From IMG/VR virus record IMGVR_UViG_3300045988_124153: a stretch of 64,000 nt of DNA; one strand, given 5' to 3'. The notes below the pieces were generated by a model, which worked only from the letters and a program-made list of their open reading frames with translations, ran no database searches and was not told where the DNA came from. Positions within the stretch are counted from its first letter, which is position 1, and each line of letters starts with the position of its first letter. Of this stretch, positions 7,341-53,470 are shown piece after piece. The DNA comes from a virus. The position numbers were made by a program, and so were the translations under genes.

Positions 7341-10080
7341 TCGTATATTAGTCAGATAGTGAACGACGAAAACAATACAAATGTTTGTTAATTATGAGAG
7401 TAGAAGATTTAACGAAGTTTGAAGGAGAATGTCCTAACATAGTCGTACTTGGTACATATATGGATATTAGGGTTCCATTAACGAAAAAATGGAAGAAAAT
7501 TATTAACGAGAGAGGAGATAAGCCAAACACGTATCATAACTGTTTGATTAGTTATATCTCAGAGCAGATCGCGTTGTCCGGATTCAACATGAAAAGCATC
7601 GGGAACCTCTTAATAAAGGGAATCGTTTTTAATCAAAACGATTACTATAAGTATAACGACGTAGGAGGATTCCCGGCAACTATCAACGATTTGGGATATT
7701 GGGATAAAAACAGGGTAGAGCCAAATGAAGATTTTCACACTGTTAGGCTGTTTAATACAGTAAGTGTATATGGATTGATGTTTGGACCCATAAAACAAAA
7801 TAATTTCATTACGCTGGAAAACGATATAATGCAGATTAATGTTGGCAGCATAACTTACATCTAAAGAGATAAATCATGAAGCTATTATATTTAGTAGAGT
7901 CAGGAGAATCGAAGTTCCTTGTCTTCGACGAAATGCCTGATAAAATTAGCACAAAGTACGGAGATGATACCATTATTGGAAGGATAGGAGGTATATTCTA
8001 TGATTTCCTTGCAAAGAGAAATGAGAGAAGAGAAGCTTTCGGAGGTAGAAAGTTCGATATCGTACTTGACAACGGAGAGATAGAGAAGTGTGAAGGGCAA
8101 TGGTGGGATGCGGTGACAGACAGAGCAAGAGAAGAATTGGAAAAAGAGGGAAATACATTTTCCAAAATGATGTTGATCGGTGTTTCTTCAGTAGATAGAT
8201 TATCGGATTGTTATGTGTATTATGGGTTATGGGCATCCGAAAGTAAGATTGAAGAAATGATAGCTGACTACAAAGGTCATATATATGAGTATTACGAATT
8301 TAAGGAAGAGGTTATTAATAAGATAAATGAGACCCGTAGAAAATCATATATTCAATCTTGGAAAGAACAGATAATACGGTCTGGGATGAGGCAGAAAAGA
8401 AAAGACGTATTTGAATCACCGGATGGATTGTATATTGAGATGGTATATGAGAACAAAGCGTTTGTGCCATATAGACCTATAAAAGAAACCCAGGATTTAC
8501 CTATAGATGCAAAGTACATACCGCTTCTTACAAGGATATTTGGAAAGAACATACTTGCGGAGATAGGAGGGGATAAGATATTTATAACTACTGGGAAATA
8601 TGCTGTGAATTTTTGGTGCTGGAAAAAGTAAGCATAATGTAAAAAGAAGATTAAAATAATAGCTTATGACATTTCGAGAATTTATGCAGGAGAACGGCTA
8701 TGACCTGATAACTACCTTTTGGGAAGATTTCAGCATAGCCGACAAGTATGGTGTAGCAGGTGTCAAAGATACCTACAAACGTGCATTCAGTGAATGGGAA
8801 GATGATTATAAGTTTTTCACGGAATTAACGCTCGTGTTGAATCATAAAATCTGGCAGCATTATGAAAGCAATCGTGAACTGGCCGCATTGTATGACCGGT
8901 TGTGGCGGGAAGTTGACGAGTATGCCATGAACAACTTTAAGGGAGAGGAACTTGATTATTATTATAAAATAACAGATTAATATTATGACAGCAGCAGAAA
9001 AATTGCGTATGGAAATAGCGCAAGAAGCACCATTCAGTAAAGACGAATTTATTAGTAAAATCTCTCGTCTAATTAAGGCGTATGGATATGCAAGTTTTAT
9101 TTGCGACAAGCATATTCGAGAAACTAATATATCATCTAATGGTAACACAATTCGTATGGCACATGAACAGGTAGCAATTGATTTTGCTCGTTCTGAGGGT
9201 TTCTCGGTATCATATAAACATAACAGTTATGGTGTTAGATATATATTATTCACTTTGTGTAAAATATAAAGACATGGAAGACGGACTTATTACAACAAAA
9301 GAAGTAGGGAATTATCGTATAAAAATATACTATGATACTGACAGTGCATGTCCTTGTGAAAGTTGGGATATGGCAGCATGTTTCTTATGGGAATGTATCT
9401 ATTTACCTCGACTGCAAGATGTGTGCGATTGGAGAGAAGTGTTTGGTAAATACGGAGATAGTCGGCACTCACTTATAGATGCACTACATAAACTTATTAG
9501 TAAATATGTTAAATGGAAAGACTTGCTGAATTATTTTAAGAAAGGCAAGATTGACGGTTGTCGACTGAGATATGATAACCATGATAAAATGTGGTATTAT
9601 AAAGAAATTTTTAGCATTTCTCCATCAGATCTTTACACGTATGATTATACGTATGAATTTATAGAAGACTTAGGATGTGAAGAATTGATTCAGATTCTTT
9701 CAGACTTAGGCAAGGATATATTTGTCAAAGAATGGTCCACAACAGGATACAGTCAAGGGGATTATGTTAAAGGTATAGCTTTCTGTACAAAGGAGAGGTA
9801 CACAAAAAATGGTTAGTAATAATACTTCCGATTGGAAAACCCAAATTGACAAATTGATTGATGATGAAGTGAAATCCATAGGTATGTGGATGTGGGGAGA
9901 TGTAAAGGGGTACGTGCTTGAAAAGAAAGTGAAATTTGTCAAGAAATACAAAGATAAATCCAGGGAGGATGAAGAGGGAGAAGAATGGGAAGAGGTTGAT
10001 TCCTGTTGGGGTTATTATATGGAAACAGACGAATTGATAGAAGAAATAATGAAAGAACATAATCTGAAAGAATAAGGAGA

Positions 10081-10089
10081 TGGGGGGGG
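10081..10089. repeat. G9 homopolymer between an SD-like GGAG and a 57-aa GC-rich small ORF (10083-10256, MGGGIMRVYYQ...)
   Basis: Nine consecutive G in an AT-rich intergenic context; the tract gives GGG codons after the first ATG, and a second in-frame ATG lies 15 nt downstream. Confidence 0.5.
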
Positions 10090-12655
10090 GATCATGAGGG
10101 TGTATTATCAGAAAGAACACCAAAGAATTACAAATAATACTGATTCAGGTCAACGGCTGATAGTGACGGACGCCACAGGAGACAGGTGGGGTAAAGTGCG
10201 AAGAGCTCCGGTTCAGGGGAGACGCGGGCTGCATCACATGGCGTAAGGTTACAGTAGATGAAATTATTGAACATTTTAAAAGAAGATAATTATGGGATAT
10301 ATATGTACAAGATGTGGTGGAACAAAGGTTGCTTGTGAAGCCATAGTAAATCCGAATACCAGAGAAATAATAGATTATTTTGATGGATCTTTCGCGCATG
10401 CTATTTGCGGGGATTGTGAAAATGAGGTAATAATATCTAACGTTGAAGAAGTCAAACATGAAATTGATTTAAGATTTCATGAATTTGTAGAAAGAACAGG
10501 TAAGGAGCCTGAATACGTAGAATGTCAGATTGTATGGAAGGAGACAGGAGACGATAAAAGAGCGACAATCAAACTATCGCTGAGTATCAACGATGATGAT
10601 AATGATGATGTTTTTTATTATTGTAATGGGATAGAATCATTTAAGCAACTTGCTGAATACGGGATGGGAGAATTTATCGTAACATTTTGTTGGAGTTTCT
10701 TTTAAGAAATACATTCAGTTATCATTTTTTAATAACATATCTTATGAAAGCACAAGAAGAATATGCCCATGAAATTGACGAAATCGTTCGCCGGGATGTA
10801 GAGAGCTACCAGAGTGACTGGTTTATAATCGACAAGGAGATATTTATGCAGCCAGAGAATAAGAACAAGGCATTTATTTTGGGAACAAGAAAGACCGGGT
10901 GCGATATGATCGTACTTGGAGGTACTAATTGCAGCGGATCCAATATGGATTGGCTTTTCGGTTGCCTTGGCAACCGAAAACTTCTATGTATGCCAGCCAG
11001 TATCTTTCTATAAATCACAACAAGAAATCCAGAAAGTAAATCCGCTTTATGCTTTCAAGGTGGCCACTGCTTATTTTAGAGAACAAGGGAAGGTTCCGGT
11101 ATTTGAAGATAGTAACTGTAGATTAATAAAACTATGAGCATAAAAGTAATAAGATACAGGTTGCCATCTTGTTGGGCTTGTCCGTTAATCAATGATGATT
11201 ACACTGGATTAACGGATGAAGAATGTGAGGAAATCCATAAAATACAAGATATGGAAAGATTGAATTTTGAAACATTGTTTCGTATCGTAAGATGGGATTA
11301 CAACCGTTGCTTTAAGGATGAATCACTGGACAAGGATTTGTTCGTAGAAAAATACGGACGGGTAATGGGTGAACATTATTATAACAAGTTTGTCCATGAA
11401 TTTGACGGAAATATCCTGAAGATGGTTGGTTACTTCAGAGGTTCCGAAAAAGATGGGCAAGTCTTCTGCGATATGATAACAGAACGTATTGAAAAATACG
11501 AAAAGAGAATGTCATATGATAAAGGTAAGTTAAACAATTAAAAAGATATTTATATGAACAATTCAATGGTCGCTCACTTGTGGGCTCATGAACAAGAAGA
11601 ATCAGCATCAGGGAGCAATTTCTTCTTTGAAGGTACAAGTATTTATTCTTATGGGCATCACTTTGAAGTCGGGAGAATAGTAAAAAACAAACAAGGGAAG
11701 AAAGCATACCTGATAAATGAAGATTATTATTCTGTTACCACGAGCAAACATCAATGCTATGTTCGTAATGCGATACCAACTTGGGCAATGGTTTTCAGTG
11801 TAGGGGATAATATATCGGATACTGGTAATATGAGGTTTGTTGCCAGCAAACTGGAATCAATTAAGAAGTCTATTGAAAAATACAAAAGAGCTAAAACAGA
11901 ATTATCTTATACAGATATTTGGGGCGCTTTTGGGAATATGATGGATTACATTCAGTTCTTTAACATGGGGACTGCTAAGAGTATCCTTAAAAAGAGTGCT
12001 AATGATTGGCTTGGAACCAATCATGAATTATCCAAGAGCGGAGATAGTATCAAGCGTAAGCACGTACATGAATTAAAACGCATCTTTCAAATTTTATTAG
12101 ATCATCAAGGATTAAAAGTGTTAGGGACCGTAAATGTGATTGTTGATGAAGTTTGCGGGGAAGGTACATGGATTAAGTATTCAGAAAGATCTGAAAGATG
12201 GAGAAAGGGTGAGGAAGAAAGAGAAAGAATAAAATTAGAGAGATTAAGAAAGGAAGAAGAAGCCCGTTACAAGGATTTTGATGAAAAACTGGAAGAGTGG
12301 AAGTCAGGAGAAATCAATTTCTTGAATACACCTTTCTATATTCCTGGTGAAAAACCTAACGCCTGGATTCGTATAAAAGGAAATATTATTGAGACAAGTA
12401 AACAGATAAAGATTGGAATAGCAGAAGCCAGAAAACTGTGGCGGGCCGTGTCGGAAATGCACCGGGGCGCCGAGTTTCGGCACGGTCTGGTGGAGGATGT
12501 CACCGGCCACCAGTGGAGTCTAAATCGGTACGAAAACGATTTGTTAACCGCTGGATGCCACCGGATTGCATATAGCGAGATGGAAAGTATTGCGAAACAA
12601 CTGGGATGGGCGTAAGTAACCCATCCTGTTTTATAACAATTAAAAACGAAAAGAT

Positions 12656-13394
12656 ATGGAAAATTCAATTATTGTTCCGTTTGATTTAAATACGGCGAGA
12701 AAAATTAAAAGCGGAGAAATAGAAGGTTCGGTATTAATTGATAATATTGAAATAGAATTTGTATATGAGTCGAAAGACTGTGCAGGTCCTTATAATTTGC
12801 TTTTTGTAAAAAAAAGATGGATATGGGATAAGTGCTATATATGCCAACACGGAAGGTTGTACTATTGGCGGCACCACTCTGGAATTGAAAGTAGAGGCTG
12901 GAGCGTATTTTAAGAAAGGAGATGTATTAACAAGCACTAATGGATATCAATTCATATATGATGGAATTATTACCAAAGGGATAATGGGATGTATATGCGG
13001 AATGGCATCATTTGGAGATATTGGGTTTGATTACAAATTATGGACTGATGTGTATGACGAATATAGAAAACGGCATGTAAGAAAGGCTATAGAGGAAGAG
13101 AAGAAATTTTTAGCAGAAAAGATTATAAAAGCCGAAGACAGTAGAAAAATAGATATAATAAAACGATATTTAAGTGAATATGAGTATCTATTAGATGAGA
13201 TGCCGAAACGCGACTTCAAACCATTTGAACGAGTGCTGGTGAGAAGAACTAACCAAGAGAGGTGGAAATTGCATTTATTTTCCAGAGAATCAGTAGGAGA
13301 TAATAAATACGAATGCTTAGGAGGGGTAGGATTTAGTCAATGTATCCCATACGAAGGCAACAAACATCTTTTAGGAACTAATAAAAACAAATAA
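12656..13394 (+). CDS. Paralog 1 of a duplicated gene. The N-terminal part (frame of 12656; MENSIIVPFDLNTARK...) and the C-terminal part (frame of 12885) join only by a +1 shift at the A8 tract 12808-12815
   Basis: Conceptual translation of both frames aligns to paralog 2 on either side of the A8 run (…NLLFVKK / KDGYG…LELKVEAGAYFKKGDVL). Confidence 0.5.
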
Positions 13395-13398
13395 GATT

Positions 13399-14129
13399 AT
13401 GGAATATAAAATGGTAACAATCCCGTTTGATTTAGAAACGGCGAAAAAATAAACATAGGGGAAAGAGCAGGTCAGATTGTGACAGAGAAAGGACGAAATA
13501 GAGCAGAAATCGTATATGAAGACAATTCGTCAATTTGTCCGTTATTGGTTGTAATTCATTCTATTTCTGTATCGGCAGATTGGTTTTCTGCTACAGGAAA
13601 AGCATTTAGCAGCGAAAATCGCCTCCTTCTTGAAGTCCCGGAATATACTACATTTAAAGATGGAGATGTGTTAAGCAACGAAGAAGGAAATTTTATTTTT
13701 ATCTTAAATGCTAATGGGAAATATTTAACATCTTTGTATGCGAGTCTTGCAGCGGGAACAAGTCTTAATATATCGGATAATGTTGCTGCACACGAAAACC
13801 ACATAGAATGTTATAGACTTGCAACAGATTCGGAAAAACAGAAGATGATTAAAGCGTTAAAGAAAAGCGAAAATCCTAAAGCAAAAGAATATCTGAAACG
13901 CTTCTTCGGGATTAAAGAAGAGCCGAAATATGATTTTAAGCCGTTTGATAAAGTGCTGGTAAGAAAAGAAGGAAATAAAAAATGGAATATCAGTTTGTTT
14001 GCAAGGGAATTTGTGGACGATTATAATGGATTGCCTTATAAGTACGAATGTTCTAATGGAACATTATGGGATTATTGTATTCATTTTGAGGGAAACGAGC
14101 ATCTTTTAGGAACTGACGAGGCGCTTTAA
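13399..14129 (+). CDS. Paralog 2 (MEYKMVTIPFDLETAKK / INIGERAGQIV...), requiring a -1 shift at the A6 tract 13444-13449; the C-terminus (DFKPF(E/D)(R/K)VLVR...HLLGT) is shared with paralog 1
   Basis: An 18-codon ORF at 13399 ends at the A-run; its continuation in the track ORF 13479-14129 frame is homologous to the paralog 1 N-terminal part. Confidence 0.5.
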
Positions 14130-15240
14130 TGTACGCAAATTAGAGTTGCAAGAATATCTGTCCCCAGATATTCTTGAAAATGGAACATATATGAAAATAG
14201 AATACATACAAAAATGTAAATACGGCGCAGTCACTATCAGATTTGATAATGGTGCTTCGAATAGCATGTTTTGGGAAACATTTGAAAAATTGGATTTGGA
14301 TACTGGTGATGCCACATGGCTTCACCAGTCCTACTGCTGCAACCACTGCGTCAACCATTGGGGAATAGACTTATGCGAGTGTGGATCCGGCGCAAGAGTT
14401 GGTGAATGTGGATCCCAAAAGGCACATGACACATTAGGGGTTAAATATGATTCGTTTGGAGCAATATTAAAAAACTTTGGATAATGGATATAGTAAGCAA
14501 ATACACCGCCTTGTTAGGACAACAGAAGCTAAAAGAATCATTTGTGAAAGATTTGGAGCTTGTATTATCAAGAAAAAATCCTAATATAGAAAAAGGGAAA
14601 CTTAATTTCATTCGTTATTCAGAAATGAAAAATTGGAGTGTAAGAGAGTTGTTTGGTGAAGACTTGGGACAAGCTGATAGGGCTTTAATAAACAAGGTGT
14701 ATCATATGCTATTTGATATAGGTTCGGATTTTGAATCGGTTATAAGAATGCTATATAGCTTTCGTAACGGACCTAAATCGGGGATAAAAGTGGCGGATCC
14801 AGAGGATAATTACGAATGGACTAACAAGGACGGAAATGAAAAATATTCTACTAAAAATCTCCCAAAAGCGCATTTTAGATGGGATTGGAGAAGATATACC
14901 TTATCAAAAGAATCCGTTGATAAAATAACGGAGTTTGTAGACACCATATTAGAATCATAGAGAAATTATGAACGAAGTAATTTTAAGCAACATGTTAGGA
15001 TGTCAGACATATTGTATATCAGACAGTCCTTCGAATAGATACTGTCTTATTGGACCTATTGAGTGCAATGAGAAGTTAATAGAAGTGTTTAAGAAGGGGA
15101 TAACAGTAAAACTCAAATACGTGGAAAAACGGGTCCTGGATGCATTTACGGACAACGGAATCGACCTGAGTAATTACACTCATTGTATTATTGTGAAGCG
15201 GAATTTTTATCTCGCTTGGTAACGGCAAAACATAAACAAT

Positions 15241-15903
15241 ATGAATAATTTTGTAATAGATACTCCAGATAATTTCTGGCAAATAAGATGGCTTGACAAG
15301 TATATGGAAGGCCACAAAGGATTCATAGCTGGTGGATGTTTTAAAAATATCCTTTCCGGAGAAAGAGTAAAAGACATTGATATTTTCTTTGAAAGTGAAA
15401 GCGATTTTCAGGAGGCTATTGATTCGTTCAATGATGAAAAACATCAGAAGGAAGGATGGAGATTTAAGTACAGAAATGAGAAGGCATGTGCATTCCAGAA
15501 AGAGGGAGAAAAAGTATGGATAGAGTTCATAGAGTCAGAGTTTGGAAAGCCAGAAGAGATTCTTAGGAGCTTCGATTTTACTGTGACAAAAATGGCCTAC
15601 TATAAGGAGCCTAAATACGAAGAAAAAGAAGATGATTATTTTCCATTCTCATCTGCAAGTATAGTAGCATACGAGTACAAACTACTCTATCATGAGAAAT
15701 TCTTCGAACATCTTCATATGAAGAGACTGGTTATTGACGAGAATATCCCTTTTCCAGTAAGCACATGGGAGCGCTCATATCGGTATAAAGGATATGGTTA
15801 CAATATGTGCCGGGAGACAAAGAAAAAACTTCTACAGGCTATTAAAGGTGTAAACGTAGAGGAGGAAGATGTATCTTTGTACACTACTGGAGGATGGGAT
15901 TAA
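15241..15903 (+). CDS. Nucleotidyltransferase (Pol-beta superfamily) with a head domain like CCA-adding enzyme or poly(A) polymerase: FIAGGCFKNILSGERVKDIDIFF
   Basis: The GG...R..DID motif is typical of tRNA nucleotidyltransferase and PAP head domains. Confidence 0.45.
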   Translation: MNNFVIDTPDNFWQIRWLDKYMEGHKGFIAGGCFKNILSGERVKDIDIFFESESDFQEAIDSFNDEKHQKEGWRFKYRNEKACAFQKEGEKVWIEFIESEFGKPEEILRSFDFTVTKMAYYKEPKYEEKEDDYFPFSSASIVAYEYKLLYHEKFFEHLHMKRLVIDENIPFPVSTWERSYRYKGYGYNMCRETKKKLLQAIKGVNVEEEDVSLYTTGGWD

Positions 15904-16372: not shown

Positions 16373-17209
16373 ATGAGCACAAGTAAAGAATACAAGGCAG
16401 TAAGGAACTTCATATTAAATGAACTTCACCTTACCAAAGAAGATATAATAAAAAACATAGAGCCATTATTGGAAAAACTCGTAAAACAGTGTATGCTTAA
16501 TACATACGGAGGAAACAATCAGATAGAACATTGGATCAGATGTATGGTAGCAGATGAGCTTAAACAAAGGGATTATGGTTTTGTAGAAAGAATAAGCAAG
16601 GAAATCATAAAAGCTCATGTGTTGAATGAGTTGAACATAATTGTAAGTCCCAAAAATAAAAGATGCGTATGTGAAAATAGAGTACCATCAAGAAAAGATG
16701 GTTTGTATCTAATCTACGGAAATGGACACGCTGAGCCGTTTACCGGCGATAACTCCAAAGATTGTGTACAATACATCGGGTTGAAGCACAGATACATGTC
16801 ATTTGCAATCTCACTGACGGAGCATGATATCGTACAATTGCTTGACGATGATAGCCGTGAAGAATCCGGAAGTGGGACATATTACGAACGTGAATGTGAT
16901 GCGCTGTTTGACATTGACGGACGCGGCAATACGGAACGTCTTGTAGCCAGAAATCCAAAATTGAGAAATCTGCTGGAAGATGGCGAGTATATACCATCTC
17001 TTGGTCAATTAAATTTAATGGCCCATTATATGGACGAACTAAACAAAGCATTCGCTTATGTTTCGGCATCTCCCCTCTCCTCGACGTGGTATTGGTCCAG
17101 CACTGAGAGCAGCCAGGCCGTCGCGTGGTACGTGGTCTTCTCCAGTGGCCTCACGGGCACCGGCAACAAGCACATCGGAGACATGGTTCGGACGGTAATT
17201 GATTTTTAA
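16373..17209 (+). CDS. Hypothetical protein with a DUF1566/FISUMP-like C-terminal motif (YWSSTESSQAVAWYVVFSSG...VRTV)
   Basis: The YWSST...AW.V.F..G...VR(C)V signature sits in a GC-rich island at 17040-17180. Confidence 0.4.
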   Translation: MSTSKEYKAVRNFILNELHLTKEDIIKNIEPLLEKLVKQCMLNTYGGNNQIEHWIRCMVADELKQRDYGFVERISKEIIKAHVLNELNIIVSPKNKRCVCENRVPSRKDGLYLIYGNGHAEPFTGDNSKDCVQYIGLKHRYMSFAISLTEHDIVQLLDDDSREESGSGTYYERECDALFDIDGRGNTERLVARNPKLRNLLEDGEYIPSLGQLNLMAHYMDELNKAFAYVSASPLSSTWYWSSTESSQAVAWYVVFSSGLTGTGNKHIGDMVRTVIDF

Positions 17210-18018: not shown

Positions 18019-21000
18019 TTAAAAGTGAAATGGACTGGAAGAAATACAAAGAGGAAAAACCTTCAGAGGGAGAAGAAGTGTTGGCTTATCACCCAAGTTG
18101 GATAGATGAAGATTTCAACCCAAGAGGTATAAGAATAGGGTTTTGGAATGGAGGAGACGATTTTAAATCGGCTCATTGGTGGGATTATCAAGATTGTTAT
18201 ATCACAATCTCTCATTGTGATTGTGATGATAATTCTCTTTTCAGTGATAGAATAAAAAACAGCATAGAGCCAGAGTTATGGATATCACTTGATGTTATTA
18301 CAAATTACTTACCTAACATAAAACAAAATCACTTATCACAATGAGCTATTTTATATTAATGGGAAGAAGAATCCCCAAGCAAGCTATAACAGGCTTCAAG
18401 TTCCAAAATGAAACAGATAACATTCGTCCTTTTCTGTCAATCAGGATAAGGGGAAAGGACGAAATTATACCTTTCAAAGATAAAAAGGAGATACAGTCTG
18501 TAAAAGCGCATCTGTGTTCTGTCTTCTCCGGATTTGTAAAAATAGGCGACTGGTATCTCAAGATGTCGGAAGTTAAGGAATATAAGCCGGTGACCGCCGA
18601 AGACATGAACCCCTACATCTTGTTTAAGACATCTAAGTTCGGAAACATAAAAGTTCGTTTCCCGAAAGATGAAGATATGGATGCAGAATTATTGGTGTTA
18701 GATCAACTTTTTGATGTAGAATGAATTATTGATCATATTTTAGAAATCATGACCTGGAAAGAATTAAAAGACAAAATATCCCTTATGACAGAAGAAGAGC
18801 AACGACAAGAAGTTGCAGTATGGGGAGAAAATATGAATCTAATGAAAGATTGTTCCTTGGAGAAAACAGACGAGGATATGTACTACAACTCTGAATGGGA
18901 TTATACTTGTGAAGAGAGTGAATTGGAACCGGAAGACAAGAATGACCCTGATGTACATAAGGTATATGAAGCAGGAATGTATTATATTTATTCGAATTGA
19001 TTTTAAAAAGATCTGATTATGGCAGCATTAACAACACTAAATATAACGGAAAAGAACGCTAATAACAGTTTGTCTGTAACTGCTAAAGTGAATGTCACCA
19101 AAGAAGGAGTGTTTACCACTACCTTGTCAAAAGAAGATGTGGACAAGATTCATTCTTATGGGATCAAATTACCTACAAACAGATTAGGCAACGAAGGATA
19201 TTTCAATAGTATAGCACTTTCTGATTTGGAAAGTCAAATCAGGGAAGTTCTGAAGAGATGTTTGAGTTATAAAATAGTAGAAGAAGTGCCTGTTATTAAG
19301 TATCAACTGGAAACGAATTGCACGTTTTCATATGACAAAAACGGAAATATTGTCCCTAACCCCTCTAAGGAATGGACAGGAGGCGATGAAAATGGAGAAT
19401 GGAGGGATGGAACTTCCCGTTTAGATGCCTTAAACGCCCAACCTTTCGGTTTTAGTGTTTATGCAAAACCATTTCTAAAAAGAGTAATTGAATATGAAAA
19501 TGGAGAGACAAAAGTAGAATACAGCAGGTTAAATACAGAAAAAGGAACCTATGCGCACTGGCTGAATTGTGTAACGAGCATATCATACAATAGATATAAA
19601 CAGGTAATGGAAGTGGAGTGTAACGAATGTACCTCGAAATTATTCGTTGATATGATCAAGTCCATTTGTAATATAAGCGAACAAGTTAAGAGTTTTATCA
19701 ATCCAGAACAAATAAAAGCAATTGCGGGGTCGAATGAACCGATTTTGCTTTTATCTAACAACTAAAAAATCATGAGGTGTGTATGTGTTTTTATCTGCTT
19801 TCTGTTATGGCTTATTTTTTACGTTGTTATTATCATTCACTGTCATAGGATTGGTTATAAGCGTGAGTGATGAATGGCAGGAAATGGGTGACAAAATAAT
19901 AGATAAACTTTAATAAAATATGAATAAGAATATAATCAACAACGCTCAACTTTTAGAGATTAAAACTAAGATTAGACAGCTTGGAGCAATGATGAATGCA
20001 TATCAATGCAGGTTTGTGGTTTCTTCGGGTCAATTGTTTTTTGTGGATGATGAATATGCTGGAACGGTTAAACTGACTAATCTTGATAATGGAGAATCTA
20101 ACATATCATTCCCTTCATGTGACGATGGATTGATAATCAATCCAGCCGATAAGCATATTAAATAATTTCAAAACTAAAAATATTTAAATTAATTAAACAA
20201 TAATAAGACATGAAACAAGATATAGAATATGCTGTTCCTCTTTTTAAAGCTGGTGCAGAGTGGCGCATTAACAGCGTATGGCATTCTATAACAGTAATTC
20301 CAGATTGCCACCGTTTTATTGTGTTTCTCCCTAAGAAATCAACAACAGGATCAAAGAATCCAATTATGGGTATATTGGAAGAGAACAGAACTTTTATATC
20401 CAGCCGTCCAGGATGTATTTTATGCAGATTAGATGAAATGGAATCATGGGCTTATTTGGATGATCTATTACCTTAGGTAATTATATACTCAATTAATTAT
20501 TCATTTTTAAAAGTTAGAGTTATGAGACAAAAAAGGAAAAACACTTCATCCAATTTGGAGAAACAAAAAAAATGTACTGATAAGTATGAATACATATATT
20601 TGCCAAAAGATCCGTTTAAGAAGCATCCTAATAAAAAAGGAGAATGTTATTTAATTCGTAGAGGCGAGGTCTAATACCGGAATGCAAAACGTTTTAGGAC
20701 TTGACGATCCTAATGATAGATCGGGTACAAAATTAGTAAAAATACTATCCTCTAAAGCTATAAGCGACTGTATTCAAGATGGTTATTTATCGGTAAAAGA
20801 TAAGCCATTTCCTTGTTTTAAAGAAAATAGAAGAATGAATAAATTAAGAAGAAAATTTGAAAGGTTATGACCGACAGAGAGCTTCTTGAAGAAAACAATA
20901 AGATGTTAAAGGAAATCCTAAGTTTTGTGAGAAAAGTCGATTCTGTTGAATACAGGGATCATCATGACTTTATGGAATTTCTTAGAAATGTGGCAGCCGA

Positions 21001-43949: not shown

Positions 43950-44687
43950 TCATATCGTAAAATTAAGTGTTTTTTCTAATATCAGATATTCAGTATGAAC
44001 TTTACTTCCGCCATCATTTATCAAGTCCAAATTAATATAAGCTGTATATGATACATGATGATCACCAGGAGCAAGACGTTTCATATCTGATAAGAACATA
44101 GAATTTAGACCTTGGCCAGACCATGATTCTGGATATGGCAAAGGTTTAAAGTCGGCGTCTGTACATCTTACAACCCAAGTAAGATTAGGATCTGCCCTAA
44201 CTATTCTATCATGAGGTCCATCAATTACAAGATCTGGCATCTCATATTGGTAACTATCATAATTAAGGACAATAGGATCACCAAAGTTTACACCGTATAT
44301 AGCAGCAGGTGGAGTAAAGCTTGTTATTAAAAAGGTTCTATTAATCCTATTGGTTGTTCTTAGCGTAAACTCATCAGGTGCTATCACACTTACTATAAAT
44401 CCATAATGAGGAGAGGTTGTTAAAGCAATAGCAAGAACCACCGAATCCTGTTCAAGCAATTCCTCTGTCGTATCAACCCGACTATCGATCTCTTGCCTAT
44501 CTTCCATTGGAACACCGCCTTGGACACTTATGGAATCCAGCCGTTCTTTTTTAGACAGAAAGATAAATTGCCCGCCCTGTGGAATGGTGCCTACTTTCTT
44601 TCCTTCTACGATTACCCCCCCCTATACAATCGCTAACTATCTTATACTCATATAGTTTAGCATTATTTTCAAATCTTCTTCTCATAA
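43950..44687 (-). CDS. Tail-fibre-region protein beginning MRRRFENNAKLYEY...; it reads through a G10 tract (on + strand C10 at 44615-44624, encoding GGG) into the track ORF 43950-44507
   Basis: In the printed sequence the frame is open from ATG 44687 to the stop at 43950; the N-terminal MRRRF matches the internal MRRRF start of the neighbouring gene. The ORF track starts only at 44507, implying a different tract length. Confidence 0.4.
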
Positions 44688-44691
44688 TTTC

Positions 44692-45393
44692 ATAAAATTA
44701 ATTCGGTAAAGGGGCGGACATAACGTCGATTACTCCTTGTACTTGTATCCAAATGATCTCCTTGGATGTTTATATCATAATACCACGAATAGGTAAATTG
44801 TGTAGATTGAGTGGATGTCCACATTTTATTACTCATTATCGTACCTCCTACCATTAAAAGGCATTCGTTTATTTCATTCGCATACAATGATATCAAAAAA
44901 ACTCTCCGGCGCCACCTACATATCCATTTTGACCATTTTTAAATAAATAGCTATTAGCTTTATTAAAAGCGTAATTTTCATTACTGGTATCATATTCAAG
45001 ATACGCATTCTGATTTTCACGCCCCCAATAATCCTTTTTAACGGTCTCCATATAAGAACTATTTTGTGCAAATACATTGTCTACTATTCCATTCTTACCC
45101 CAACTAAATGTGCCAATATATTCGGTGGCTATAACAAAACACACTTTATCTACAAGAGCTATTCCATTGCATAGATCATTGGAATATCCTTTATTAGACC
45201 AATTTTCTTTCGTATATAATCCTCCGTCTACATGTTGGATGTATATGCCTTTATTGATTATAAGCGAGGGATTTACCCCCATCCCTATTTGAAATCTTCG
45301 TCTCATGATTTTTGTTTGCAAGATAGCAATAATTGACAACATAAAAGAAACCGGTTCCCTATCATCTCTGACTGAGAACCGGTAAGAAAACAA
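44692..45393 (-). CDS. DUF1566/FISUMP-like carbohydrate-binding (tail-fibre-like) protein, split over two frames (track ORFs 44893-45393 and 44690-44896); C-terminal motif WTSTQ...YSWYYDI...RRYVRP
   Basis: The YWSST...AW...VRCV-like signature sits in the second piece. The printed sequence places the stop at 44692-44694; the track's 44690 and its W-containing translation cannot be reproduced exactly from the print. Confidence 0.4.
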
Positions 45394-48500: not shown

Positions 48501-51500
48501 CGTTGAATGACAGGTGCCCCCCCAACATAAGTGTCTTCAGCGCAGCTTCTCCTCCTGACTCGTTCTGAATCGTTCTCAATTTTTGCAAAAACGATTCTGA
48601 TACGACATTAGTGACATTATTTGATTCCTTTCTCCAAACTTCATTTATAGCTTGTATTTCTTTGGCCATCTTAAGTTGGTCGCCGGTTTTTTCCACTCTC
48701 CTGGTTCCTACATATATGTATTCTGAAGCTGCTTCTTTACGTTGTTTACGAAGCAGTCCTTCTTCTTCGTAATTGCTGCTTTTAAAATAGGAGGCCTCAT
48801 CAAAATTACCACCGCTATCAATAAAAGGCTGCCTCAATATCCGTTTTTGCCTGGATAGAGCATTAAGATATTCTTTGGTTGTTTGAGAAACTGGATGCCC
48901 TAATTCTTCTTCAGCCTTTTTGTATATGGATTCCATTCTTGTGGCATAACTTTCGCTAAATTCCAGTTCCGAATTTTCAGCATCCCACTTTTCCATCTGT
49001 TCCGTATAGATCTTTTCCTGCTCGATGGTAAAAATATCGGTATTAACTCTATCAGACGATGGTTTGAATTTAGCGTTTTCAGTAACCGTATTTCCATCCT
49101 TGTCAACTACTTCTCTTTTAAATACGTAATTACGGTTATTGTCAACCACATCATTGATTTCTTCTTCTGATATCTCTATGTTCATGGCAGTCGCAAACGC
49201 TCGCATCTGCGCCAGCTTCTTATTACGATCGTATTTAGCCATATCAAGAGCACTACGAAGGTAATTAGAAGTTTTGCCGTCTACTTTCTGAAGCAGTTTT
49301 TCAAATTCAGATTTGTTAAAACCATGCTTTTTAGCATATGCCAGGAAGTCGGATATGGCGGGCTGGGCATTCACCATCGCATTGTAATTGTCTTTGGCAA
49401 TCATAGCTCCAAGAGCGTTATTGAACGGACTGGAAGAATGCTCTAATATACCAAACCACCTACTTATCCAAGAAACATCATGTTGAACTTTGTCAAAAAA
49501 TTCTTTTACTCTCTTTACCTTATTTGCCGGCACATGAAGTTCGTTCATTAACTTATCAAGCAACGTACTTTCATCAAGGTCTTGTACTGATTTAATATCA
49601 GACTGAATACCATTGATGTCGGCAATGACGGTATTGATCCTATTTGTATAATCCTGCTTTTCACGTTCATCAAATTCGGTACTTCTGTTACGGATATATC
49701 CTCGAAGATCGTTCATGATCGGAAGAACCTGATTGTTGATAATATCTACGTTCTTTCGATCATTGGTATTGAAGTGAAGCTTACCGTCTTTGGTATCACC
49801 ATGAAGGATGGTGTTCACCACATTGCTTAAGTATCTGACCTGAGCTTCGGCTGTGGAGATCATGCTGTTCATGGCAGCCGCCATCTCATTCTTGTCTATC
49901 TCGGTCTCTACTTTATTTATCTTATCTTCTATGGTCTTAAGCTGAGCAAGGGTCATAGACGTAGTTACAGCCCTATCAGAGCTTATCTGACGTAAGTCTC
50001 TTAATGTTTTTCTTAGCGATCTGATCTTAGACTCAAGAAACTTGTTCTTGTTCATAGAAGAAAGGGAGTATAATGTAAAGTCATTATCCTTTAACAGAGA
50101 AGTGTCAAATCCTTTATCTATGTCAGTAATGGCAAGATCACGAATGTTTTTAATAACGTTATTCAAATCTTGTCTTTGGGTTGATAAAGCTGATTTAAGC
50201 CAGCTTACTATTCCAGAGAAAAGCCGCCGGACGCGCCCCAGGAAGGAGGTGGGCTCTACCGGCGCCTGTGCTGTGCCGGTCTGCATCTCCCTGGCGAGGA
50301 TCTTTCCAAGAATTTCTCTCCTAACAGCATTATCAAGCTCAGCTCCTTCATATACTTTACCGTATGTATTATAATACTGACCTGCATATTGGTTCCACTC
50401 TTCCGTACCTTCCACATCTTGCAGAACAGCCTCAACAGCATTCTGATCTCTGTATGCCTCTACAAGGAAGTGGGCTGTTTCTTCTACTAAATCAGATAAA
50501 GTAGCATCTTCACCAACTGCTATTACGTTATTGGCAATATCCGCCAATGCCTTAGCAGAAGGTTCATGCCCGTATTTGGTTTGGTACTTCTCTATATAGT
50601 CGGTCATACCTATGACGCTAACGCCAAGAGTTTTCAGTATCTCGACAATAGAATTTCGTTGGTCACGTTCCTGCCTGCTATAATCCGATACGATCTTAGC
50701 TTTAGTATCAGCATAAAGATCGTTGTCTTCTAATATGAATGAAACTACAAGCGCATCAAAATGATCGTACTTGGCGTCCAATTCATTGTATCTTCCTGAC
50801 TTAAGATCGTTCTTTATCTGCTCCCTGCTAACCCTTTCCGTTCCTCCGGTGGCGAGCCTCATAGTCACCTTACTGTTATCCAACGAGCTTATGGTTATCA
50901 TACCTTGGTCGTTCATGGAAACATCGGAACCAAAATGATTACGGAGCTCGGTGTAGGATAAGGCTGAATTGAAAAGTCTAATTTGTCCTGTATGACCTTC
51001 TCCTGTAAGATAATAGCTTCTTGTTTCAGGATTGAATATCTTAGATCCTGACAAAAGACCTTTCTTTATAAGGTAGTTAATTATACCACCTTTTGTTGAT
51101 AAAGAAGTAGAAGCAGACGCGGTCATGACCGGTATAAAAGACTTGGGATTATTAAGAACATACTTTCCAGCTTTGTAAGTAATGTCTGCCACGCCATCCA
51201 CGGTAGATTCTTGAACGGTGCCTGATAAGAATCCTATTCTAATATCATTCCCGCCAGAGCGAAGAGCTTCTCCGTAATCTTCAAATAATTGACTACGATC
51301 GTTCATGAAAAACAAACGAGGCTCTCCGGTCTGATACGTTACACCCACAGGATTAGAATCTGTCTCTGGTAGCTCTTCTGGGCTAAATATCTTAAGACCG
51401 TCTTTTATAACCATATAATTAACACCCTTATCCTGTACCATAGATACGGGAGTAAAGTCCGAAGATATAGCATCTTGTAGATACTGCCCGGCGTCTATTC

Positions 51501-52454: not shown

Positions 52455-53470
52455 TTATTATTTGTTTAAATAGACCAGTTCCGTCTATTATAATATGACC
52501 GTTTCTCATGCGGTCATTATTTGGGTTATAGAGAAAGTTAAGACCATCCACTTTCTCTTGTTTTTCAAAAGAGTTGATATCCTTTCCTCTACTTGCCCTA
52601 TCAAAAGCCTTCTTAAACAATTTGCCTCTGAAAGTCATAATAATCTTTCTGGTAGCGCTATTCCCGGCTTTTACCATTGTTTTCCTTGTCTGGTCCTCCG
52701 AGACAAAACTGCTTCGGAAAACATACGATGCTGCTGCTTGTATATCCTGCTTGGTAATCATATGCAAAACATTCCTTTCAGAATACTGGTCTTTATTCCG
52801 TATATCAATTTCATGTTATCTCTATCATATACGCCAAAAAGGATTCACTGGGGTCCTTTGGATTTACGCTCAGTTGAATTATGCAATTGTAAAGATAGAC
52901 CTTAAGTTCATAATTATCAGAGTATCTATCCTGTATGTTTTCAAATGTCTTAATTAATTCTTCAACAAGTACTCTGCTAAATGAAAAAGGTTCTCTACAA
53001 TCACCTTTAAATATGATATGATTTAAATCATTGGTATTATCAAATTCGTACTCTACCCGACTGTCGTCCATCATATCATAAGTGATTGACTTTTTGATTT
53101 TAAATCCCATATTATTTTGTTTTTTAGTTAATATAGATCTTCTGAATACAATTGTTCTCTAATGGCACTCCTATCTACTACCATTTCCTGATTATTGCTC
53201 TTAACAAGTTCAGATGCTTCCTCTCTTGTTAAAAACTGATTCTTGCTTGTCAAAAATCCTTGAACACTACAGTTTTTATGGGCTATACCGTATGCCGCAA
53301 GTTGAGATAGTATAGAGGGGTGTCTCAATCCACAAAATACGGTTCCAGATGGTATATTGGTGGGCTGATGAGGACGCTTCTTGCCGTCCTGCACCCAGAT
53401 GGCCGCGCATATTACTATTTCTTTATTATACATGATACGTTTTTCTATTAAATTTATTAAATATATTCAT

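Follow-up and report, generated by a model that had tools for sequence, protein, structure and literature searches.

Two adjacent genes of a gut phage each change their reading frame at a run of adenines, which raises the question of what such a pair of shifts represents. The genes are located on the plus strand between positions 12656 and 14129 of a 64,000-nucleotide (nt) stretch of viral DNA (IMG/VR record IMGVR_UViG_3300045988_124153), which is referred to here as the window. From the letters alone, a sequence-only reading had offered three explanations: programmed ribosomal or transcriptional slippage, systematic homopolymer errors in the assembly, or parallel pseudogenization. Comparison with related phages revealed that the feature is real, well replicated, and of a known kind, and that it represents neither programmed frameshifting nor an error of the assembly. 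Recurrent replication slippage at two A7 hot spots has probably given rise to loss-of-function alleles of two dispensable tandem paralogs, carried by a human-gut phage of about 150 kb that is related to phage csAssE-Sib.

Two tandem paralogs that change frame at A runs

Gene 1 (12656–13394, plus strand) starts in frame 2 with the ATG at 12656, enters a tract of eight A (site 1, 12808–12815), and stops at 12913, yielding a product of 85 amino acids (aa; 12656–12913). The remainder of the gene lies in frame 0 and is open over 194 codons from 12810 to the stop codon at 13392–13394. The shift from frame 2 to frame 0 is thus +1, corresponding to one surplus A. With seven A, the tract reads as the codons V-K-K (GTA AAA AAA G) and gene 1 encodes 245 aa.

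Gene 2 (13399–14129, plus strand) starts in frame 1 with the ATG at 13399, is translated to MEYKMVTIPFDLETAKK, and then meets TAA at 13450–13452, leaving an open reading frame (ORF) of 17 codons (13399–13452). This stop codon directly follows a tract of six A (site 2, 13444–13449). The remainder lies in frame 0 and is open over 232 codons (13431–14129) up to the stop codon at 14127–14129; gene callers predict a protein of 216 aa from it, starting with the GTG at 13479. Here, the shift is −1, corresponding to one missing A; with seven A, the tract reads K-K-I (AAA AAA ATA) and the protein comprises 243 aa. Both tracts are hot spots of frameshifting. The ORFs and their translations confirmed the coordinates, the tract lengths, and the directions of the two shifts (+1 at A8, −1 at A6) as given by the sequence-only reading.

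Repair of both genes, by removal of one A at site 1 and addition of one A at site 2, resulted in proteins of 245 and 243 aa. These could be aligned from residues 5–243 of the former and 6–241 of the latter with 31% identity (E = 1e-31). The alignment spans both the N-terminal PFDL..TA(R/K)K module and the C-terminal DFKPF..VLVR..W..LF..RE..HLLGT module, so that the claim of tandem paralogs with shared modules at both ends was borne out end to end. A third copy was looked for in the 64-kb window and was not found. If the frames were joined by a shift, the trans-frame junctions LLFVKK-DGYGISAIY in gene 1 and ETAKK-INIGERAG in gene 2 would be expected, with the junction peptides LLFVKKDGYGISAIYANTEGCTIGGTTLELK and INIGER, respectively.

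The nearest relative in GenBank is phage csAssE-Sib (OR575929.1, 151 kb, human gut), which is colinear with the window over about 51 kb at 83–99% identity. In csAssE-Sib, gene 1 is annotated as a coding sequence (CDS) of 246 aa with A7 at site 1, and site 2 reads GCGAAGAGAATAAGA (AAGAGAA), which is in frame and does not contain an A run. Gene 2 is part of a run-on CDS of 393 aa in this phage, with about 390 nt of extra sequence after gene 2 (locus L001, 5120–5520, versus window 14114–14132); in the window, gene 2 has a stop codon of its own and the junction is short (17 nt). Single-base gaps in csAssE-Sib relative to the window are located at 14173 and 14214. Judged by these orthologs, the presence of two split genes goes far beyond chance, since the same genes are single intact ORFs in csAssE-Sib and in most of 68 relatives from IMG/VR.

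Searches of Pfam and PHROGs with both repaired proteins did not give a significant match, and nothing relevant was found in the literature on "csAssE". In the protein collection, the paralog family consists of 418 clusters, all of them unnamed and without a Pfam domain. Full-length clusters of about 245 aa predominate; many clusters of 169–173 aa represent the downstream ORF of split alleles.

Tract lengths in related phages

A protein-guided scan identified 68 related loci in IMG/VR, and the tally for site 1 additionally includes the csAssE-Sib locus L001 (A7). At site 1, A7 was found 50 times, an interrupted tract of the AAGAAAA type 13 times, A8 four times, and A10 once; the A10 allele is in frame and adds one lysine. 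At site 2, most relatives carry A7, about 10 carry AAAAGAA or AAGAGAA, four carry A8, and one besides the window carries A6. A stricter tally of IMG/VR required exact flanks, allowed any tract length, and used the same ascertainment at all tracts. It yielded 35 in-frame A7 and three out-of-frame A8 alleles at site 1, and 69 in-frame A7 alleles as compared to five A8 and three A6 out-of-frame alleles at site 2. In about 90% of the orthologs, the tract is either A7 or interrupted, and each of the two genes forms one continuous ORF. An intact gene 1 of 245 or 246 aa is present in csAssE-Sib, in 55 of the 68 IMG/VR loci, and in loci L083–L092, and an intact gene 2 ortholog of 243 aa is also present among the IMG/VR relatives. 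The N-terminal peptide is therefore not encoded as a separate gene throughout the orthologs, as had been considered, since nearly all of them possess one fused gene; neither is the shifted arrangement conserved among the relatives. Being a minority allele, it does not represent a conserved recoding site.

Out-of-frame alleles of both directions, A6 as well as A8, occur at each of the two sites. Altogether, the lengths A6, A7, A8, and A10 were seen at site 1 and A6, A7, and A8 at site 2. Among 17 near-identical sequences, which differ at only 18 single-nucleotide polymorphism (SNP) columns in 2,137 nt, site 1 is either A7 or A8, and site 2 is A6, A7, or A8; furthermore, all four gametes were found for the combination of site 1 with the SNP at 12981. 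Two haplotypes of gene 1 exist in both A7 and A8 versions without any other difference in 727 nt; for one of the two, an A6 version is known as well. The difference between out-of-frame and in-frame alleles amounts to 0–2 positions. On the divergent backgrounds L053, L066, and L071, each out-of-frame allele has an in-frame allele as a nearer neighbor, all other out-of-frame alleles being more distant. Apparently, the changes in tract length have arisen many times and are young, and the youth of the out-of-frame alleles would also account for their downstream frames being still open.

The same alleles were recovered independently from many samples. At least 20 contigs (30 index blocks) encode the exact 85-aa product of the A8 allele; they belong to assemblies from ENA, Logan, and JGI, represent different human-gut samples, and bear names typical of MEGAHIT and SPAdes. 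The exact 216-aa product of gene 2 was found on 22 contigs. For run ERR321612, the combination of A8 and A6 is present in both the ENA MEGAHIT and the Logan assembly. The ENA MEGAHIT contig of this run does not differ from the window over 4,678 nt and also has the frameshifts located at window positions 1418, 9804, and 10974. The two sites were also found to vary separately: A6 at site 2 stands beside an intact gene 1 in ERR11477278 and ERR7340770, as does A8 at site 2 in SRR36241552. A6 at site 1 was found in loci L098, L285, and L311; it occurs in ERR10683761 and in a divergent clade of orthologs, which contains A8 as well.

Tracts of comparable length in conserved genes of the same contig collection served as controls. 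The in-frame A8 of the DUF4494 gene (window 22132) was A8 in 124 of 124 contigs. The tract of the NinG gene (window 22831) was A8 in 49 contigs and AAAAAAGA in 72, with zero length variants, so that 0 of 173 pooled A8 controls (49 + 124) varied in length. As compared to these controls, 11 of 115 alleles at sites 1 and 2 were out of frame (Fisher p about 2e-5; the control total was entered as 184 instead of 173, which barely alters the result). Likewise, the A6 tracts at 11682, 13977, and 14469 were invariant in 24–54 relatives. Since the control tracts do not vary, miscalling of tract length is not the reason why sites 1 and 2 vary, and systematic homopolymer error of the assembly is refuted for both tracts by the independent samples and assemblers together with the invariant A8 controls. 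Evidently, alleles of altered tract length are purged by selection in some genes but tolerated in gene 1 and gene 2. In summary, the alleles are real and recurrent, relatives are normally in frame, and the controls in conserved genes do not vary in length.

Origin of the out-of-frame alleles

We infer from these results that replication slippage is the mechanism, that the alleles have lost their function, and that the genes are dispensable. A7 at both sites would be the functional state. Slippage of the Streisinger type during DNA replication, with one A gained or lost, would generate an out-of-frame allele in which 85 of 245 residues of gene 1 and 17 of 243 residues of gene 2 are left in frame and the conserved C-terminal module is lost; a truncation of this extent would abolish function. 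If the genes are non-essential and belong to an early or accessory set, such alleles would not be purged quickly. In natural populations, they segregate at roughly 5–11% per site. The window phage would then simply happen to have gene 1 out of frame by A8 and gene 2 by A6, alongside several other frameshifts in small genes. Of the three earlier proposals, parallel inactivation is the one best supported; the alleles are young, recurrent, and polymorphic, unlike old, decaying pseudogenes.

Intact copies exhibited ratios of nonsynonymous to synonymous substitution (dN/dS) of 0.34 for gene 1 and 0.45 for gene 2. These values indicate that the intact genes are under moderate purifying selection and argue for the in-frame form as the functional one. 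Lesions other than tract-length changes were also found. Within the 68 loci, a frameshift or nonsense codon interrupts gene 1 (12656–13394) in 8 of 63 contigs and gene 2 (13399–14129) in about 6 of 53. Frameshifts of gene 1 are located at other positions as well (L061, L062, L067, and L068), and gene 2 is absent from about 15 of the 68 loci. Altogether, the lesions of these two genes and of their neighbors include frameshifts, mixed nonsense codons, deletions, and deletions that fuse the paralogs. In eight contigs (L097, 1900–2000, and seven similar ones), gene 1 is lost through a deletion that fuses its N-terminal PFDLNTAR module to gene 2 at the tract (GCGAGAAAAAAATAAAC); the resulting hybrid is out of frame as well. 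The deletion looks like the result of recombination between the paralogous 5′ modules. Furthermore, all eight genes that are frameshifted in the window relative to csAssE-Sib encode fewer than 250 aa, and 16 large genes for replication and structural proteins are intact (P = 0.013). Gene 1 and gene 2 would accordingly belong to the genes that a phage can do without, at least in some hosts.

Frameshift hot spots caused by slipped-strand mispairing at homopolymer runs, as described by Streisinger, are known classically from the rII and lysozyme genes of phage T4. The tracts described here resemble them in that single bases are gained and lost at an A run of a phage gene, at the same site and in both directions. 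They differ in being natural polymorphisms across human-gut metagenomes instead of laboratory mutants, and in that two tandem paralogs are hit together. For annotation, this means that the split genes are frameshifted alleles of single genes for 245 and 243 aa; they should be described neither as four genes nor as a recoding site. For metagenomics, it means that homopolymer frameshifts in short-read assemblies of phages can be genuine segregating alleles, and that counting tract lengths at equally long runs in conserved genes provides a simple control for artefacts.

Several observations weigh against this explanation. Out-of-frame alleles at the two sites co-occur above expectation (Fisher p about 0.009, obtained from two partly overlapping data sets and with kinship ignored). 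Genotypes with both genes out of frame were found in L047, L053, and L245, that is, on three backgrounds which are 72–92% identical between the tracts. Simple neutral decay does not predict this co-occurrence. It hints that the two genes are functionally coupled or that the state with both genes off is favored by selection, and suggests joint action of, or joint counter-selection against, the two paralogs; as they tend to be lost together, they are candidates for conditionally useful host-interaction genes. In addition, the allele calls rest on assembled contigs, and the sequencing platform was deduced from assembler-style contig names. A comparison of the window lineage with its near-identical relative L087 (window 8549–15615) revealed an unusually high number of indels, seven as compared to four substitutions in 7,069 nt; other near-identical pairs showed 0–3 indels per 2–19 substitutions. 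Finally, the frame may be rescued at a low level at A8.

The co-occurrence of the two lesions brings in a second explanation, namely that the A7 tracts are contingency loci. They would be kept as reversible ON/OFF switches, so that the phage population is always a mixture with and without both proteins, and these may help on some hosts and be a liability on others, for example by triggering a defence. Homopolymeric tracts that act in phase variation are known from bacterial contingency loci (PMC2831843, PMC1891110, PMC10334774). As in those loci, a 5′-proximal homopolymer toggles the frame, and ON and OFF alleles exist among near-identical genomes: the length of the tracts differs between such genomes, and the changes are frequent, bidirectional, and recurrent on near-identical haplotypes and on several backgrounds. 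The tracts occupy codons 51–53 of 245 and 16–17 of 243, a placement as reported for regulatory homopolymeric tracts of prokaryotes (PMC2831843). The arrangement with both genes off arose on three or more backgrounds, purifying selection acts on the intact genes, and further hypervariable tracts are located in the region (G6–G9 at 10082, A5–A7 at 15823).

However, the tracts do not seem to be specially conserved, as synonymous AAGAAAA is found in 13 of 68 loci at site 1 and AAAAGAA or AAGAGAA in about 10 at site 2. The A7 runs themselves exist because V-K-K and K-K-I are encoded with AAA codons in a genome with a guanine-cytosine (GC) content of 36%. Irreversible lesions, that is, nonsense codons, other frameshifts, and deletions, are similarly frequent in the same genes and their neighbors, which fits plain dispensability, and reversion events cannot be polarized from the present data. 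The differences from bacterial contingency loci are that the carrier is a phage, that the tracts are short (A7) and often interrupted synonymously, that irreversible lesions are about as common as tract-length changes, and that reversibility, switching rate, and adaptive value are hypothetical. We consider it doubtful that the tracts are maintained as switches. It is equally a tentative idea that they toggle co-operating paralogous early proteins together and in this way hedge between hosts in which the proteins are helpful and hosts in which they are recognized. If this were true, simple-sequence phase variation would operate in a virus of gut bacteria.

Conserved programmed frameshifts, as in the tail assembly chaperone G/GT, dnaX, and prfB, are needed in essentially all orthologs and are accompanied by stimulatory elements. 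The present tracts share with them a slippery run and two possible products per locus. Under the proposal that short and long isoforms are made, out-of-frame alleles would still yield the full-length protein by transcriptional slippage or by ribosomal +1 and −1 slippage of tRNA-Lys, and at site 2 the TAA following the run would stimulate the shift. The sequences would allow it, since the A runs permit perfect re-pairing of tRNA-Lys in both directions, with GTA AAA AAA AGA permitting +1 and AAA AAA TAA permitting −1; such re-pairing on AAA is a property of any A run. Downstream frames are open in all out-of-frame alleles. RNA polymerase slippage on poly-A can restore a frame, as in tssM1 of Citrobacter rodentium with about 20% frameshifting at A11 (PMC4256274), and ribosomes are reported to be able to slide on iterated AAA codons (PMC4363877). 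The likeness to tssM1 lies in a poly-A run directly before a stop codon with the remainder of the gene in another frame. In tssM1, however, the arrangement is fixed and needed and comprises 11 A; here, it comprises eight and six A and is the minority allele of a normally in-frame gene.

The other results speak against recoding. The shift is not conserved, about 90% of the orthologs being in frame, and +1 and −1 alleles are both present at each site, unlike what a dedicated recoding signal would show. Folding of 70–81 nt at and after each tract was no better than that of shuffled sequences (z = +1.19, −0.40, +0.02, and +0.34); unlike conserved programmed frameshifts, the tracts thus lack a stimulatory RNA structure. 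Bacterial (Escherichia coli) RNA polymerase is reported to need at least seven T, and more in the case of A, to bypass indels, whereas much shorter runs suffice for slippage of T7 RNA polymerase (PMC6260861). By these reported thresholds A6 is too short and A8 is marginal, as compared to A11 in the published bacterial example, and the threshold depends on the polymerase that transcribes the genes. The open downstream frames are accounted for by the youth of the alleles, as outlined above. Rescue of the frame by transcriptional or ribosomal slippage is therefore unlikely, and the production of two isoforms by a dedicated shift is very improbable.

An origin of both shifts in sequencing or assembly, with A7 as the true state at both sites and the homopolymers miscalled, would fit the splitting of at least eight small genes of the window at short homopolymers relative to csAssE-Sib and the excess of private indels expected from homopolymer-error-prone data, but it is largely refuted and can hardly be credited, because the same alleles recur in many independent samples and with different assemblers, A8 and A6 control tracts do not vary, the frameshifts are confined to small genes and spare the large ones, and two of the private indels of the window are insertions of C and not changes in homopolymer length.

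Neighboring genes and other variable tracts

Dispensability of gene 1 and gene 2 would also be in line with the state of the neighboring genes. Frameshifts or nonsense codons were found in 6 of 48 contigs for the 220-aa gene, in 7 of 44 for the 278-aa gene, in 4 of 62 for the 353-aa gene, and in 4 of 35 for the 298-aa gene; per neighbor, the rate of lesions in accessory genes is about 2–16% of contigs. The accessory early region of this widespread group of gut phages thus carries a standing knock-out load of a few percent to 16% per gene. Nonsense codons caused by single-nucleotide changes (CAG to TAG, GAA to TAA, TGG to TGA or TAG) segregate in L013, L060, L063, L028, L030, and others, in the orthologs of window 11554–12615 and 16373–17209. 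The premature stops in relatives are a mixture of TAA, TAG, and TGA at Q, W, and E codons and hence represent true nonsense mutations; a variant genetic code or suppression was rejected because of this mixture, and the window does not contain tRNA genes.

Besides gene 1 and gene 2, six further CDS of csAssE-Sib are split over two frames in the window. The respective differences between window and csAssE-Sib are G5 instead of G4 at 669, A5 instead of A4 at 1418, CC instead of T at 10974 (T to CC), T6 instead of T7 at 20041, A7 instead of A8 at 44902, and A5 instead of A6 at 52841. An additional ORF of 299 aa is split into 212 and 88 aa at 9804, where the window has A6 instead of A5. The two private insertions of C are located at 10974 and at 14173, the latter being intergenic. 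The eight genes split at homopolymers had prompted the idea that the window derives from an error-prone assembly, which was dropped after the look-ups of exact products and the analysis of the control tracts.

The 220-aa gene (15241–15903) is annotated in csAssE-Sib as "polyA polymerase / nucleotidyltransferase". A precomputed Pfam label, Gad2 (PF26128), on this neighbor was not reproduced by hmmscan and was not relied on. An A6 tract within the gene (15823–15828) is polymorphic in relatives, with A5 in three and A7 in two of them; these changes frameshift the last 25 or so residues.

A G9 tract at 10082–10090 (context AAGGAGAT-G9-ATCATG) is located just upstream of the ATG at 10094 in this AT-rich genome. 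It is hypervariable in relatives, in which G6, G7, G8, G9, GGGGAG, and GGAGAG were found, and its length changes how far a Shine-Dalgarno-like AGGAG lies from the start codon. Two further tracts, C8 at 44615–44622 and C7 at 48517–48523 (G8 and G7 when read from the minus strand, which is the coding side), are unusual at a GC content of 36–40%.

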